This document shows positions 20,803 through 31,076 of a DNA stretch of 64,000 nt, piece after piece; the first letter of the stretch is position 1; every line of letters starts with the position of its first letter. Made by a program: the position numbers and the translations under genes. Source of the stretch: Bdellovibrionales bacterium (lineage in GTDB: Bacteria; Bdellovibrionota; Bdellovibrionia; Bdellovibrionales; UBA1609). The DNA lies in assembly GCA_965219095.1 (NCBI GenBank), contig CBDCMT010000001.1:2208001-2272000 (forward strand), given 5' to 3'. The notes beneath the pieces were generated by a model. The model had not been told where the DNA came from. It saw only the letters and a program-made list of their open reading frames with translations, and made no database searches.

Positions 20803-22281
20803 ATGAAAATAATAGCTTACTTTATATTGGTGAAAGTCTTGTTTATACTTTCATTTTGTCTCGCTGAGGCAGAAAATATCGTCTCTATTTCCGTAGGAAC
20901 TACTTATGGTATTGGTACTTATGGTATTGCTGTGAAAAGCCATGCCTGTGCACTTTCTGAAATTGGACAGGTATGGTGTTGGGGATATGGACGTTATGGT
21001 CAGTTAGGATATGGAAAAAATAAGAATCGATCTTATCCTGTACTTGTGAGAACAAAGTCTGGAATGCCTTTAGAAAATGTCATCTTTATTTCTGCAGGAA
21101 GCAGACATACCTGTGCTGTTTTAAGAAATGGTGAGGCCTGGTGTTGGGGATATGGATATTATGGTCAGTTAGGAGATGGAAAAAATAAGAATCGATCTTA
21201 TCCTGTACTTGTGAAAACAAAGCCTGGAGTGCCTTTAGAAAAGGTCGTCTTTATTTCTGCAGGAGATGATCATACTTGTGCTGTTTTAAGAAATGGACAG
21301 GCACAGTGTTGGGGATATGGATATTATGGTCAGTTAGGAGATGGAAAAAATAAGAATCGATCTTTTCGATCTTATCCTGTGCTTGTGAAAACAAAGTCTG
21401 GAGTGCCTTTAGAAAATGTCATCTTTATTTCTGCAGGATACAATCATACTTGTGCTGTTTTAAGAAATGGTGAGGCCTGGTGTTGGGGATATGGATATTA
21501 TGGTCAGTTAGGAGATGGAAAAAATAAGAATCGATCTTATCCTGTACTTGTGAAAACACAGTCTGAAGTGCCTTTAGAAAAGGTCGTCTTTATTTCTGCA
21601 GGAGATGATCATACTTGTGCTGTTTTAAGAAATGGACAGGCACAGTGTTGGGGATATAATTTATTTGGTCAGTTAGGAGATGGAAAAAATAAGAATCGAT
21701 CTCATCCTGTGCTTGTGAAAACACAGTCTGGAGTGCCTTTAGAAAATGTCATCTTTATTTCTGCAGAAGAAGATGATCATACTTGTGCTGTTTTAAGAAA
21801 TAGAAAGGCAGAATGGGTACAGTGTTGGGGAAAAAACCAGTCTGTAAACAGCAATAATTATTTACGAAGGTTCAAACACCTAGATCCTGAACCTTTACAA
21901 GTAGATCAAAGCAATTATTTACGGAGGTTCAAACACCTAGATCCTGAGCCTTTACAAGTAGATCAAAGCAATTATTTACGGAGGTTCAAACACCTAGATC
22001 CTGAACCTTTACAAGTAGATCAAAGCAATTATTTACGGAGGTTCAAACACCTAGATCCTGAGCCTTTACAAGTAGATCAAAGCAATTATTTACGGAGGTT
22101 CAAACACCTAGATCCTGAGCCTTTACAAGTAGATCAAATATATCCTCCGTATCCTTTTATTATGATTTCTACAGGTACTAATTATACATGTGTGCTTTTA
22201 AATGGACAGGTACAGTGTTGGAAACATCAAAGTAAAGAAACTCCTATTCCTATGATTATGAAATTTAAGAAAAAGAATTAG
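20803..22281 (+). CDS. Secreted RCC1/BLIP-II repeat protein with internal 19-aa tandem repeats
   Basis: Signal peptide; repeated ISAGxxHTCAVLRNG...CWGYGYYGQLGDG units of about 55 aa. Confidence 0.9.
   Translation: MKIIAYFILVKVLFILSFCLAEAENIVSISVGTTYGIGTYGIAVKSHACALSEIGQVWCWGYGRYGQLGYGKNKNRSYPVLVRTKSGMPLENVIFISAGSRHTCAVLRNGEAWCWGYGYYGQLGDGKNKNRSYPVLVKTKPGVPLEKVVFISAGDDHTCAVLRNGQAQCWGYGYYGQLGDGKNKNRSFRSYPVLVKTKSGVPLENVIFISAGYNHTCAVLRNGEAWCWGYGYYGQLGDGKNKNRSYPVLVKTQSEVPLEKVVFISAGDDHTCAVLRNGQAQCWGYNLFGQLGDGKNKNRSHPVLVKTQSGVPLENVIFISAEEDDHTCAVLRNRKAEWVQCWGKNQSVNSNNYLRRFKHLDPEPLQVDQSNYLRRFKHLDPEPLQVDQSNYLRRFKHLDPEPLQVDQSNYLRRFKHLDPEPLQVDQSNYLRRFKHLDPEPLQVDQIYPPYPFIMISTGTNYTCVLLNGQVQCWKHQSKETPIPMIMKFKKKN
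21856..22138 (+). repeat. Five tandem 57-bp in-frame repeats (NYLRRFKHLDPEPLQVDQS)
   Basis: Units start at 21856, 21913, 21970, 22027, 22084; almost identical, no spacers. Confidence 0.95.
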
Positions 22282-22585: not shown

Positions 22586-22679
22586 CTAAATCATTGAATG
22601 TGTAATGGTCTAAGAATATTTTGCTATGAAAGTTTTAAAATCTTCCTTGAGAGAGGTGTTTGAGTTTTCATAAAATATG

Positions 22680-23681
22680 GTAACTGCTCACTCTCGTAAG
22701 TTTTTATTTAAAGCCATAGAGATGGCTTCTAAAGAAGAATACCCTTTATTTCTCATTGTTTTAACATAGCTGGTAATGCGACAAAAATATTTCGCCATTT
22801 CTTCTGTTCTGAAACACCCTGACACTTTCTTTTTCACTTTAGTCATTCTTAGATCTCTTTCAACTCTGTTATTAGTGGGATCTACGTTCTTTCTTTTAGC
22901 AAAACACAATATTTCTGCTTCATACTTTTTAAATCGCAGCCAAAGGTTTTGAGCTTGTGTGTGCTTTAGTCGTCCTTTCTTGCCATTTTTTTTAGGAAAT
23001 TCTGGAAGCTCTTTTAAGCCTTTTGTAAGAATACTCCTATACCTTCTCTGAAGAGTTTCGTACTCTTTTTGAGTCAGAACTCTTGACTCTTTTTTATGAA
23101 CTAACTCCACAGTCTCTTTAAGAAGTTTTTTGAGATTTGTAGCCCATTTGAATCCATTGCTTTCTTCTATAAATTTAAGCTCTCTCAAAAGGTGAGCCAC
23201 ACACAAAGCATGAGTTATCTTATCATAACAAAAGTAAGGACTCCAACAATCATGCACAAGCACTCCTCCATATCTATCCAAGAGACCAATATCTTTTATG
23301 GCTTCCCTTCCACCTGAAAGGTGGAGAAACTGCAAGACTAATTCTCCTGAACTATAAGTATGAATCCAGTAGTTTTTACCCTTAACCCTCATAGAGGTCT
23401 CATCAACATGAATGACCTCTGATTCAAGTATCTTTTCTTTCATCTGCTCTTCCCAACTTTTAAGAAACTCTCCTAATTCAGCAATGTATCTCAACATAAC
23501 TGCAGGAGAAATCATTCGACCTATAAGCCCCATGTAATGTTCCCCAACACGTTGAAAAGACAGCATCTGAACTATAATGAAATTGATGATGGAAGCTCTA
23601 ATGCCTATACCATACTGAAGAGGACCACTCATACCTTTAGGGAATTGACCTTTATTTCTAGCTCCACATGAGGGACAATCT
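22680..23681 (-). mobile_element. IS66-family element, 5'-truncated (transposase remnant 22688-23681)
   Basis: IR GTAACTGCTCAC at 22680; HVDET, HDCW, CVAHLLREL, PTNNRVERDLR; similarity to full copies stops near 23681. Confidence 0.9.
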
Positions 23682-23744
23682 CCGTTTCTTTACATTAATT
23701 TTTTAGGAAGAATCATACAAATGGAAGTTGTAGGTCAAAAGGTC

Positions 23745-23946
23745 GCTTAAGTCTTTGTTATATTTTCTTGAGGATCGAAAAAAAAGAGGTGCAAGCAGTT
23801 TGAAATTCATCAAATGTTTCATAGTATCTGTTGTAAAGAACTTTTTTCTTGAAAAACTTCCAATATCGCTCTAGTGGATTAAGATTAGGGCTGTAAGCTA
23901 GCAAAAAAAAAGTAACGTTATTTAGCTTTTTAGATGTCTTCTTCAT
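23745..23946 (-). pseudogene. IS630-family transposase C-terminal remnant
   Basis: YSPNLNPLERYWKFFKK...NRYYETFDEF. Confidence 0.8.
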
Positions 23947-24797
23947 TAAATCTGACTAATGAGTTCATGCTTGATCTAATACAACTACCACAAAACAAAG
24001 CAAAACAAAAAAAACAACGAAGTAAAACAGATATAAAAAACTCAAAATAAGGCATTAGAATCTAACGATGGAAAAAAATTTCACTAGACTTTTGTCTAGA
24101 TTTTTATTCTGCTTTAAATCGTTTATAAAAGAGTTTCACCATAGAAACCCTGAATCACATACTCGATCCACTTTCTTTAATTCATTTAAAAGATTAATAA
24201 GGTAGAGGCGTCTATCTAATTGTTGCACAAAAACAACACTTTTATATAGCATGTCAAGTTTATGACAGAAGGCCCCTTCTTGTTCTTTTAAAACCTCTTA
24301 AAAACTGTACAAAAGGAGTTTCTTAAGTGAATTTTAAGTATGATTTTATTTCACACATAGAAGGAATATTTTTTAAATTCTGCTTTCCTTAACTTTTTAA
24401 TGATGTTTTAGCTAAAAAATAGAGAAATAAGAGATAATATGTAGCCTAAAATTATAAATAAAAAAAAAAAAGAGATGTAACAAGCTAAAAAGATAAAAAA
24501 AGCTACTTGAGAAAAGCCAATTTTTGTCAATTGATCTGAATAAAGTAAGTTTTTTTTAAAGTTTTTTGAAAAGAATCCATAAAAAATCCAAAAATAGGAT
24601 AATAAAAGACAAATTTAAGACAATCTTTTGACTTAAAAGCATAAAAAAAATTATATGCAAAAAACAATCTAAAAGAATTCAAAAAAAACTTAAAGAAAAG
24701 TTTATTATTGACGAAACGTATAAAAAGAGGTAAACATATTAATAGGATATAATAAAAGTAAATAGATAAAAAAATATAAAAATCCAAGGAGGTTAAA

Positions 24798-25046
24798 ATG
24801 GCAAGAAAAAGAAAAACAACTGCTAAGAAAAAGACAACTCGTCGCCGCAGAAAAAGAAAAACAACTGCTAAGAAAAAGACAACTCGTCGTCGCAGAAAAA
24901 GAAAAACAACTGCTAAGAAAAAGACAACTCGTCGTCGTAGAAAAAGAAAAACAACTGCTAAGAAAAAGACAACTCGTCGCCGCAGAAAAAGAAAAACAAC
25001 TGCTAAGAAAAAGACAACTCGTCGCCGCAAAAGAAGAAAGAAGTAA
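24798..25046 (+). CDS. Protamine-like/histone H1-like basic repeat protein, 82 aa
   Basis: MA + 5x RKRKTTAKKKTTRRR (45-bp units) + KRRKK; AAGGAGGT RBS; terminator downstream; unit differences are synonymous Arg codons. Confidence 0.85.
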   Translation: MARKRKTTAKKKTTRRRRKRKTTAKKKTTRRRRKRKTTAKKKTTRRRRKRKTTAKKKTTRRRRKRKTTAKKKTTRRRKRRKK

Positions 25047-25060
25047 CTTTTTTCCTTTTC

Positions 25061-25095
25061 AAAGCCTCTGCTTTATGGAAAGTAGAGGCTTTTTT
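25061..25095 (+). terminator. Rho-independent terminator after the protamine-like gene
   Basis: AAGCCTCTGCTTT-ATGG-AAAGTAGAGGCTT stem followed by T run. Confidence 0.8.
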
Positions 25096-25192
25096 ACACC
25101 TTAAAAATCTTGATTTGCTCTGTCATACTGGCCACACTTTAAAAATCCCTTTTTCTAGCGAGATAAAAAGGAGTTTTGAAACACGATTAGTA

Positions 25193-25268
25193 TATAGTGC
25201 TTCCGTTTAGGTTTTCAGTTTTTTTTCTCTAGAGAGATCGACAGGAAAATCTAAGCGTATTCACTATA
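25193..25268. mobile_element. 76-bp IS630-derived MITE
   Basis: Imperfect 24-bp IRs TATAGTGCTTCCGTTTAGGTTTTC / TATAGTGAATACGCTTAGATTTTC; left arm matches the IS630 end at 60732. Confidence 0.75.
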
Positions 25269-25370
25269 TGTATGAAAAATTTTCCATTTTATGGTTTTAT
25301 TCTCTCCTTGTACTCGTCAAAGTACAGCCCTTTATGTCTCTAGATTAGCTCTTTTTGATAAAAGTTTTTA

Positions 25371-26903
25371 GTAACTGCTCACCTACATTGTTCAGTTATC
25401 CCTAACTTTAGACCTATTTTAAGATAAAAGTCTTGCTCTTACAGATTTTCTTTTAAATACTTTTTTCAAATGACAATAAATAAGACCTCCATCAGAAATG
25501 AGATTGAAAATATAAGAAGTGACTTTGATAAGTTTGCAAAGAAAGGTTCTGTGCCTACTGAGATTTCTGTGGTTTTTGAATCTCTCTTTAAGGTTGTGAA
25601 CATTCTGATTGTTGTGTTTTTAGAAAAACAGGTTCGAAAAAATTCCAGCAACAGCGGTCTTCCTCCTTCGCAAGATTTTAGTCGTCAAGGGAATCGTAAT
25701 AAGAAAGCTAGTGGGAGTCAGAAAAAGGGCTCTAGACTTGATAACAGTAAAGATACAAACAGTGAGGAGACTGTCTCTCCCTCAGAGTGTTCTCAGTGTG
25801 GGATGTGTTTAAAGACAGCAGAGGTAAAAAGCCTTGAGAAGCGTAAAAAGATTGATATTTTTTATGAAATTCAGACCCATACTGTAACTTCTGAAGTTAA
25901 GGATTGTCCCTCATGTGGAGCTAGAAATAAAGGTCAATTCCCTAAAGGTATGAGTGGTCCTCTTCAGTATGGTATAGGCATTAGAGCTTCCATCATCAAT
26001 TTCATTATAGTTCAGATGCTGTCTTTTAGAGCGTGTTGGGGAACATTACATGGGGCTTATAGGTCGAATGATTTCTCCTGCAGTTATGTTGAGATACATT
26101 GCTGAATTAGGAGAGTTTCTTAAAAGTTGGGAAGAGTAGATGAAAGAAAAGATACTTGAATCAGAGGTCATTCATGTTGATGAGACCTCTATGAGGGTTA
26201 AGGGTAAAAACTACTGGATTCATACTTATAGTTCAGGAGAATTAGTCTTGCAGTTTCTCCACCTTTCAGGTGGAAGGGAAGCCATAAAAGATATTGGTCT
26301 CTTGGATAGATATGGAGGAGTGCTTGTGCATGATTGTTGGAGTCCTTACTTTTGTTATGATAAGATAACTCATGCTTTGTGTGTGGCTCACCTTTTGAGA
26401 GAGCTTAAATTTATAGAAGAAAGCAATGGATTCAAATGGGCTACAAATCTCAAAAAACTTCTTAAAGAGACTGTGGAGCTAGTTCATAAAAAAGAGTCAA
26501 GAGTTCTGACTCAAAAAGAGTACGAAACTCTTCAGAGAAGGTATAGGAGTATTCTTACAAAAGGCTTAAAAGAGCTTCCAGAATTTCCTAAGAAAAATGG
26601 CAAGAAAGGACGAATAAAGCATACACAAGCTCAAAACCTTTGGCTGCGATTTAAAAAGTATGAAGCAGAAATACTGTGCTTTGCTAAAAGAAAGAACGTA
26701 GATCCTACTAATAACAGAGCTGAAAGAGATCTAAGAATGACTAAGGTGAAAAAGAAAGTGTCAGGGTGTTTCAGAACAGAAGAAATGGCGAAATATTTTT
26801 GTCGTATTACCAGCTATGTTAAAACAATGAGAAATAGAGGGTATTCTTCTTTAGAAGCCATCTCTATGGCTTTAAATAAAAACTTACGAGAGTGAGCAGT
26901 TAC
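25371..26903 (+). mobile_element. IS66-family element, full length (1533 bp), transposase disrupted (25470-26895)
   Basis: IRs GTAACTGCTCAC; 8-bp TSD AGTTTTTA; NSSNSGLPPSQD; frameshift near 26028 and TAG near 26138. Confidence 0.95.
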
Positions 26904-27043
26904 AGTTTTTATAGCTTGCCAAAAAAAGAGAATTTTATTACAAGTTGTCATTTACTATGAAAGATACAAAATGGAGCTTCTAATTGTGTTGCGTAAAAAG
27001 AATGGAACATTTTACTAAAGGGGTAGCCTAAGGAGAGTCATTT

Positions 27044-30131: not shown

Positions 30132-31076
30132 ATGAAGTACAGAAGAAAAAAAATATCAGTTATAGGTGCAGGATTTGTAGGTTCTACTTGTGCCCATTGG
30201 GCTAGTCAACAAGAACTTGGTGATGTAGTACTTTTGGATATCAATGAAGGGGTGGCAAAAGGTAAGGCTTTAGATCTTTTCCAAGCTTCTCCTATAGCAT
30301 ATTTTGATGCTAAAGTTTCTGGAACCTCAGACTACTCTGAAACGAAAGGCTCTGATTTGGTGATCATTACAGCCGGTCAACCTAGAAAACCAGGCATGAG
30401 TCGTGATGATTTGCTTTTAGCAAATGCCCGTATTGTGAAGTCAGTTTGTAAGGGAGTCGAGTCTTATTGTAAGGATGCTATTTTTATTATTGTGAGTAAC
30501 CCTTTAGATATTATGGCCTTAGTAGCTAAAGAAGCTTTAAATCTTCCGAGAGAAAGGATTATAGGCATGGCTGGGGTTTTAGATAGTGCACGTTTTAGAA
30601 GTTTTATTGCAGAAGAAACGGGTATAAGTGTAAAAGACATACAAGCATTTGTTTTAGGTAGTCATGGGGACGGGATGGTTCCTGTAGTTCGTTACTGTTC
30701 TGTTGGAGGAGTTCCTTTGAAAAATTTCCTGACAGAGGAAAAGATAGAAGAAATTGTGGAAAAGACACGTAAAGGAGGAGAGGAAATTGTGAGACACTTA
30801 AAAACAGGATCAGCTTACTATGCTCCATCGGCAAGTGTAGTGCAAATGGCTGAAGCAATTTTAAAAGATCAACATAGAGTGCTTCCTTGTGCAGCCTTTT
30901 TAGATGGTGAATACGGTGTGAACAATATGTTTATGGGTGTGTTATGTCAGATAGGAGGAAAGGGCTTAGAAAGAATCATTCCTTTAGACTTTAATCAAAA
31001 AGAACAATATTATTGGGAAAACTCTGTAGCTGGTATCAAATCTTTAGTAAAGAGTTTAAAAAAATTAAAGTATTAA
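30132..31076 (+). CDS. mdh: Malate dehydrogenase (LDH-like)
   Basis: IGAGFVG, PRKPGMSRDDL, NPLD, GVLDSARF, GSAYYAP. Confidence 0.97.
   Translation: MKYRRKKISVIGAGFVGSTCAHWASQQELGDVVLLDINEGVAKGKALDLFQASPIAYFDAKVSGTSDYSETKGSDLVIITAGQPRKPGMSRDDLLLANARIVKSVCKGVESYCKDAIFIIVSNPLDIMALVAKEALNLPRERIIGMAGVLDSARFRSFIAEETGISVKDIQAFVLGSHGDGMVPVVRYCSVGGVPLKNFLTEEKIEEIVEKTRKGGEEIVRHLKTGSAYYAPSASVVQMAEAILKDQHRVLPCAAFLDGEYGVNNMFMGVLCQIGGKGLERIIPLDFNQKEQYYWENSVAGIKSLVKSLKKLKY

Follow-up and report, generated by a model that had tools for sequence, protein, structure and literature searches.

A candidate nucleoid-condensing micro-gene family in the Bdellovibrionales

The order Bdellovibrionales possesses a family of micro-genes whose products are extremely basic. 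One of them, an ORF of 82 codons, lies in the window, the 64,000-nucleotide stretch of a Bdellovibrionales genome analysed here. Judged by the rank of its promoter and leader and by the remnant of its partner gene, this ORF belongs to the family and occupies the ancestral locus; the counterpart in Bdellovibrio bacteriovorus appears to be Bd3800. We consider it likely, with a probability of roughly 0.6, that the product is an abundant, unfolded polycation that binds DNA and helps to condense the nucleoid alongside a histone of the Bd0055 type.

The predicted window protein consists of Met-Ala, five identical 15-residue units and the ending KRRKK. It contains 28 Lys, 27 Arg, 20 Thr, 6 Ala and 1 Met, with no acidic or aromatic residues; Arg (33%) and Lys (34%) make up 67% of the chain, Arg in runs of four with Thr between them. 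Without its Met the protein has a mass of 10.3 kDa and a net charge of about +55, and by the fraction (K+R)-(D+E) its ORF tops the 12,846 ATG-initiated ORFs of the genome (3.1 Mb, 34% GC, 94% complete). The ribosome-binding site, AAGGAGGT at 24786-24793, places GGAGG five bases from the ATG. Downstream, the hairpin has a folding energy of -19.6 kcal/mol (z -3.5; 1 of 200 shuffles was equally good). The ORF, its composition, its strong ribosome-binding site and its own terminator hairpin had all been reported in a sequence-only reading, and the window bears them out, although a simple terminator and promoter scan flagged neither this hairpin nor the promoter. Pfam/HMM and homology searches with the window protein gave no match.

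Table 1. Features of the window ORF and its surroundings
Feature	Position	Strand	Evidence or remark
82-aa window ORF, Bd3800-family H1-tail-like protein	24798..25046	+	ORF call, composition, orthology signals
45-bp tandem array, five full 15-codon units	24804..25039	+	5.2 copies, 96% matches
Predicted sigma70-type promoter, TTGACG-17 nt-TAAACA	24708..24736	+	Family-conserved; rank 1 of 93,007 ATGs by promoter score; inferred
Leader motif ATCC-A-AGGAGG with Shine-Dalgarno	24782..24793	+	Rank 2 of 93,007
Predicted intrinsic terminator, 14-bp stem, U tail	25061..25095	+	Hairpin 25061-25092, then U's
Decayed TadB-like partner gene (stops, one apparent frameshift)	24163..24611	-	Head-to-head with window ORF; profile A2
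Frameshifted IS66-family element	25365..26910	+	One of 46 near-full-length genome copies; context only
IS66 fragment and DDE_3 (IS630-like) remnant	22670..23946	-	Context only
Malate dehydrogenase, then sucC, sucD	30132..31076	+	5 kb downstream; adjoins family gene 3' in several relatives

Searches for relatives with the window protein fail because of its low complexity: they recovered none of 103 candidates and one of 61 genomes, its own; another search gave two long matches of unrelated length, and two loci in other phyla matched by composition only. The family was reached by relaxing the threshold over the 109 genomes of the taxonomic family, which yielded a pair of free-standing basic ORFs; in each case the head-to-head neighbour was one and the same membrane gene. 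This partner gene has weak T2SSF/TadB similarity. A profile of it matched 74 of the 109 genomes; refined, it matched 242 of 251 genomes of the order, the window's own being unmatched. We inspected the DNA upstream of 70 of the 74 family matches, of 40 order matches spread over families and of eight more. A basic ORF lies head-to-head with the TadB-like gene at 116 of these 118 anchor loci (107 of the first 110, one more across an assembly gap, and 8 of 8), and two loci lack it. The ORF-bearing loci represent 55 genera and 11 of 13 families, the other two (f3 and f11) lying outside the sample. A start-and-RBS pattern applied to five further genomes located the gene in two that have no anchor match and in none of the other three. 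At 12 loci with weak anchor matches outside the order, which are other TadB-like genes, the ORF was never present, a result that carries no information on the family's range. Synteny with the downstream acyltransferase was discarded, as no basic ORF adjoins it in the loci of 29 relatives, and the partner is not Bd0470/Bd0471, which sit in an operon, but Bd3799.

The family ORFs range from 22 to 148 amino acids, contain 48-72% Lys plus Arg and consist of repeat only. Eight residues (K/R/A/T/V/G/S/P) account for more than 99% of the sequence in the 103 complete relatives, with Pro rare (0.6%), and no member has a signal peptide or a hydrophobic face. Upstream, 106 of 107 relatives have a -35 box, TTGACG, about 85 nucleotides from the start (range 50-150); the relatives also share a -10 box resembling TAAACT and the leader motif ATCC-N-AGGAGG. 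Matrices built from the relatives' non-coding stretches only, with the window left out, give the window ATG the top score among the 93,007 of its genome (41.2 bits; next 30.9). A downstream hairpin has z below -2 in 99 of 103 family genes, by mononucleotide shuffles. The window ORF shares the MA-K/R start, the basic end, the family residues, the own terminator, the promoter, the leader and the partner, here decayed.

Is the frame itself under selection? The array units in the window vary solely at the third positions of two Arg codons, and the sequence-only reading took this silent CGC/CGT variation as a sign of selection. Selection is upheld by the family, but the unit pattern alone is weak evidence, being two sites that would both be silent by chance with p of about 0.06. 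Across eight equal-length pairs of family genes, 39 changes are silent and 7 replace a residue (pN/pS 0.047, a ratio biased downward by the choice of pairs with at least 85% protein identity). Frame-breaking repeat changes in relatives had been named as evidence that would overturn the gene; none of the 103 complete relatives has a frameshifted tail, despite A-rich ORFs with long A runs. The family gene is thus a real coding gene under selection. In two DNA runs, possibly from the source sample, the depth of the repeat's unitig exceeds that of the unique 3' unitig by a factor of 2.2-2.9, which fits a unit variant occurring three times.

The proposed comparison of repeats across relatives produced order-wide counterpart ORFs, but not a common repeat unit or length. 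Arg makes up 0.49 of the basic residues in the window protein, the highest share of 104 complete copies; in the 103 complete relatives the median is 0.08 and the maximum 0.46. Neither the length nor the balance of Lys and Arg is fixed in this family, and the lineage of the window has expanded a 15-residue unit and shifted to Arg. Nine genera with genomes below 2.35 Mb have a median length of 107 amino acids and an Arg share of 0.20, and 43 larger ones 29 and 0.06; these are genus medians of kin that are not independent, and the window's genome reaches 3.1 Mb only with many IS copies.

Several loci bear on how such genes are called. In L091 an upstream in-frame ATG overlaps the family ORF (a 140-residue reading), and L109 is listed alongside; L073, L099, L113 and L177 have similar upstream ATGs without a ribosome-binding site, which might lead gene-calling programs astray. 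In some genera of family f10 (L147, L148, L151, L156, L188-L192) the 5' leader is longer and contains a hairpin ahead of the ribosome-binding site; five family loci, the L147 leader included, gave no Rfam match at gathering score. A 33-residue basic ORF with an CCAAGGAGG ribosome-binding site (L005:614-715, minus strand) lies directly downstream of an IS630-type transposase and does not score as a family member. In another order of the phylum, L211 and L214 contain free-standing K/A/T ORFs of 20 and 129 residues with strong ribosome-binding sites, both close to a MiaB-like gene; they may belong to a second family that does not share this synteny.

The exact window protein is absent from a collection of 15 billion sequences, as are eight family proteins; a control histone, looked up with a start chosen here, is also missing and the Atlas has the 43-residue form, so these absences are no proof that annotation misses the family. 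Atlas feature matches for the window gene (0.92; recognition 992) are weak leads.

The window gene had been described as standing alone, with IS debris on both sides. IS pieces do flank it, but the nearest 450 bp upstream, which are AT-rich, are the decayed partner gene and not IS, so that the ORF sits at the ancestral locus. Of 35,238 six-frame tiles of the genome, profile A2 scores highest on positions 24282-24611 (20.3 bits, E 7.5e-4), and the next-best matches are intact T2SSF genes; an apparent extension of the gene to about 24163, in a different frame, was seen by eye only and has a negative score. The usual MlaD-like, barrel-like and TadC-like neighbours have no tblastn match in this genome. 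With 46 near-full-length IS66 copies genome-wide, the IS neighbours say nothing special about the ORF, and cargo of a composite transposon is ruled out for a gene at its ancestral site. Between terminator and IS66, positions 25190-25270 hold a MITE-like short repeat with up to about 190 BLAST matches in the genome. Elsewhere in the window an RCC1-repeat protein (20803-22281, plus strand) has a second tandem array near its end, of five 57-bp copies. At another locus, L004:176-1477 (plus strand), the alpha subunit of RNA polymerase is extended at its C terminus by a long repetitive stretch; read on the opposite strand, this stretch gives an Arg/Ser repeat.

Which gene of B. bacteriovorus belongs to the family? 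At loci L138, L139 and L141 the ORF encodes 43 residues (132 bp, GC 0.303), and its neighbour clusters with a 216-residue HD100 protein. Assignment of the order to Bdellovibrionales draws on named B. bacteriovorus proteins with which a neighbour protein from a genome of the same order clusters, and on a histone in the window's genome close to PDB 8fvx. Table S1 for HD100 gives the same length and GC for Bd3800 (NP_970506.1), a 'hypothetical protein' listed with Bd3798 (438 bp), Bd3799 (780 bp), Bd3801, Bd3802 (651 bp) and an Mla-type operon (PMC3627812). Because position, length, GC and clustering neighbour agree, we infer that Bd3800 is this ORF, an identification by gene order, length and GC and not by sequence. 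On that identification it is, like the window ORF, divergent from Bd3799/Bd3798-type genes and has the same promoter, leader and K-rich repeat build; unlike the 82-residue window protein with its 27 Arg, it is made of Lys/Ala/Thr/Val with no Arg.

Bd3800 is highly transcribed. Its RPKM is 6,803 in growth phase (a single time point, 3 h) against 270 in attack phase, about 24-fold lower, and it is scored as expressed in both (PMC3627812). In growth phase Bd0055 stands at the 98th percentile. Growth and attack values are 5,041 and 11 for Bd0055, 768 and 14 for HU, and 16,593 and 22 for L7/L12, with EF-Tu at 41 in attack phase; Bd3798-Bd3799, at about 10 and 1-3, are scored silent (PMC3627812). 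Histone genes also peak late in growth, when attack-phase proteins are thought to be made. In the accessible parts of the sources, Bd3800 is missing from the attack-phase promoter table (Table S2, PMC3627812), from the at least 2,195 proteins of one TMT proteome, and from the lists of nucleoid-associated proteins in a 2023 review and in bioRxiv 2025.09.24.678257. Absence from the proteome is expected with tryptic pieces of 3-4 residues (the longest is 4 in the window protein, family median 3); the Bd0055 study likewise used LysC/trypsin. Two other sources failed their controls, as far as they were accessible: neither Bd3800 nor the Bd0055 accession was found in the supplements of Hocher 2023, and four Bd tags, the control included, were unmatched in the Tn-seq supplements. 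A literature search on Bd3797-Bd3802 and on Bdellovibrio nucleoid, protamine or H1-like proteins, to whose scope most subscription papers were external, found no function for Bd3800; it drew on PMC3627812, PMC10627809, PMC11318664, PMC2848022, PMC11607694, PMC12034629, PMC12546842, PMC9239181, PMC6561027 and bioRxiv 2025.09.24.678257.

By analogy, the family most likely works like the basic domains of Hc2, of BpH1-type proteins and of H1 tails. Hc2 (HctB; PF07382, NF038052) and the H1-like proteins of Bordetella and Burkholderia (NF038053) have basic K/R/A/T/V repeats that vary in length in frame, as the family does, and Hc2 and the family may both be seen as candidate nucleoid condensers in a two-phase life cycle. 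Hc2 has 165-237 residues, pentamers with two basic residues and a distinct C-terminal part (PMC2848022), whereas the window protein has 82 residues, a 15-residue unit with 10 basic residues, and repeat only. As to timing, Hc2 expression comes late, as cells convert to the compact form; Bd3800 is high at the one growth time point, 3 h, and low in attack phase. The Hc2 HMM (PF07382) does not match the window protein and matches 2 of 78 members weakly (best E 0.0018, 18.8 bits against a cut-off of 40); NF038052 finds no member at E 0.01. With no member over the cut-off and a different repeat architecture, the family does not belong to Hc2 by HMM or by build. Linker histone H1 is defined by a globular winged-helix domain, and membership there is excluded too, since no hydrophobic core is possible and Pfam gives no match.

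The likeness to H1 and Hc2 had been drawn from the window sequence and holds, as does a composition between H1 tail and protamine; 'protamine-like' fits the Arg-shifted window member and not the rest of the family. Protamine likeness is a matter of composition only, half of the basic residues being Lys. P-type protamines (3-10 kDa) are highly Arg-rich, and at 10.3 kDa the window protein is closer to the protamine-like (PL) proteins, 'rich in arginine and lysine, 6-40 kDa' (PMC11607694). Histones are not replaced as in sperm: this bacterial genome retains a histone gene whose product is identical at 47 of 64 positions (counted by eye; E 3e-26) to PDB 8fvx, which we take to be histone Bd0055. 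Bd0055 and Bd3800 are both small, basic and high in growth phase, but Bd0055 is a folded histone dimer of unrelated sequence, a possible partner and not a relative. AlgP of Pseudomonas aeruginosa also carries H1-tail-like basic repeats in a DNA-binding bacterial protein; its KPAA repeats form the 154-residue C-terminal domain of a larger protein, whereas the family is nearly free of Pro.

Basic tails occur on other proteins as well. L003:1357-1830 (minus strand; G000 C2 811856-812329) encodes a SWIB/MDM2-domain protein with a 75-residue basic K/R/A/T tail, a fusion also present in relatives L040, L180, L185, L213, L221, L227 and L228. In another order of the phylum, L212:1511-1774 (plus strand) encodes 87 residues, an H1-like basic tail followed, by eye, by a histone fold. 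L046, L048, L055, L059 and L062, in family genomes, have K/A/T/V tails on what appear by eye to be GroES-like and peroxiredoxin-like domains, and this group includes proteins with basic repeats and acidic tails.

What else might such a polycation do? It could bind RNA or ribosomes, silencing translation or protecting RNA as growth ends, as Hc2 does in repressing translation with a higher affinity for RNA (PMC2848022). Expression of Bd3800 does follow that of ribosomal genes, being high in growth, and its attack-phase mRNA stands at 270 RPKM against 22 for L7/L12 and 41 for EF-Tu (PMC3627812). A ligand of a ribosomal site would, however, require a conserved motif or a fixed length, and the family has neither; in addition, proteins of chromatin type carry this K/A/T tail as a fusion, namely proteins with SWIB domains (in the window's genome too) and a histone-like protein in the phylum. 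We regard this role as unlikely. We find it distinctly improbable that the protein is a general polyanion buffer or scaffold, for polyphosphate granules or condensates: charge is the sole conserved property of the family, and the KPAA domain of AlgP localises to polyP granules and spaces them, yet no Ppk1 domain (PF02503) was found in the 94% complete genome of the window, where the ORF is intact while its neighbour has decayed. The head-to-head layout at 116 of 118 loci, with neighbours weakly similar to T2SSF, would suit an envelope, pilus or prey-directed role tied to the TadB/TadC-like genes. This is very unlikely: Bd3799 and Bd3798 are scored silent against the high Bd3800 (PMC3627812), the window's genome lost the TadB-like partner and kept the ORF, and the lack of signal peptides and hydrophobic faces argues against the envelope.

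The sequence-only reading itself proposed an attack-phase-specific packer released by Thr phosphorylation. In its favour, the protein has 20 Thr with basic surroundings, the genome encodes a single Ser/Thr kinase domain, and proteins of the attack phase may already be produced during the growth phase before it. Thr pairs, however, are missing in 47 of 103 relatives, and Ser plus Thr is at most 5% in 13 and zero in 4, which does not support a conserved switch. Attack-phase specificity fares no better: the counterpart's mRNA is far higher in growth, and control by FliA, whose motif in attack-phase genes is TTAAG-N16-CCGATA (PMC3627812), does not fit the sigma70-like family consensus TTGACG/TAAACT or the presence of mRNA in both phases. 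A flagellar export cluster and a FliA-like sigma factor persist in the window's genome, with no detectable flagellin at 94% completeness. We hold this model to be highly improbable. (At L207:10583-18353, minus strand, in a genome without a flagellin match, lie fliL-O-P-Q-R, flhB, flhA, flhF and a sigma factor; its FlhA and FlhB are shorter than their models.) Least credible of all is a non-coding tandem repeat or chance ORF. The missing exact match and homologues would allow it, as would the two other reading frames open across the array, but promoter, ribosome-binding site, frame, composition and terminator are conserved order-wide, pN/pS is 0.047, and the counterpart Bd3800 is annotated and transcribed.

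How would a DNA-condensing polycation of this kind act? The sigma70-type promoter would yield a short monocistronic mRNA, and the protein would be made during intracellular growth and carried into the progeny. The unfolded chain, with its charge of +55, would bind DNA phosphates without sequence preference and might bridge neighbouring duplexes and promote condensation, by analogy with Hc1 and Hc2, which bind and condense DNA (PMC2848022). With Arg at 49% of basic residues, binding by the window protein may be tighter and more protamine-like. Neutralising 90% of the charge would take about 100,000 copies of the 82-residue form for a genome of 3.1 Mb, or about 330,000 of the 43-residue form for one of 3.8 Mb, near the whole protein count of a small cell; it is therefore easier to credit the protein with a contribution to packing, or with bridging, than with packing the DNA alone in the manner of protamines. 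High mRNA in growth phase, at the one time point of 3 h, coincides with a relaxed nucleoid and counts against condensation. To our knowledge any polycation binds DNA in vitro, and since Hc2 is stronger on RNA and AlgP is found at polyP granules, composition does not name the binding partner.

A bolder proposal, possible but doubtful in our estimate, is that the Bd3800 family is the missing condenser of the ultra-compact Bdellovibrionales nucleoid, a free linker-histone tail working with Bd0055 and overlooked because trypsin destroys it. Lengthening and the change from Lys to Arg in small-genome and IS-ridden lineages would then mirror, in bacteria, the transition from H1 to protamine, and the window gene would mark its far end.

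The cause of attack-phase nucleoid compaction in Bdellovibrio is described as open in the accessible parts of the 2023 review and of bioRxiv 2025.09.24.678257. What is new here is the order-wide locus, its link to Bd3800 and the Lys-to-Arg series. The family offers a specific, highly transcribed, order-wide candidate for compaction in a model organism that is genetically tractable and not a pathogen, and tryptic pieces of at most four residues explain why LysC/trypsin proteomics would miss its product. The natural series from 22-residue Lys/Ala peptides to the Arg-rich 82-mer provides a test of how length and Arg affect DNA condensation, and the polycation may help to explain the tight packing of the chromosome in Bdellovibrionales cells.
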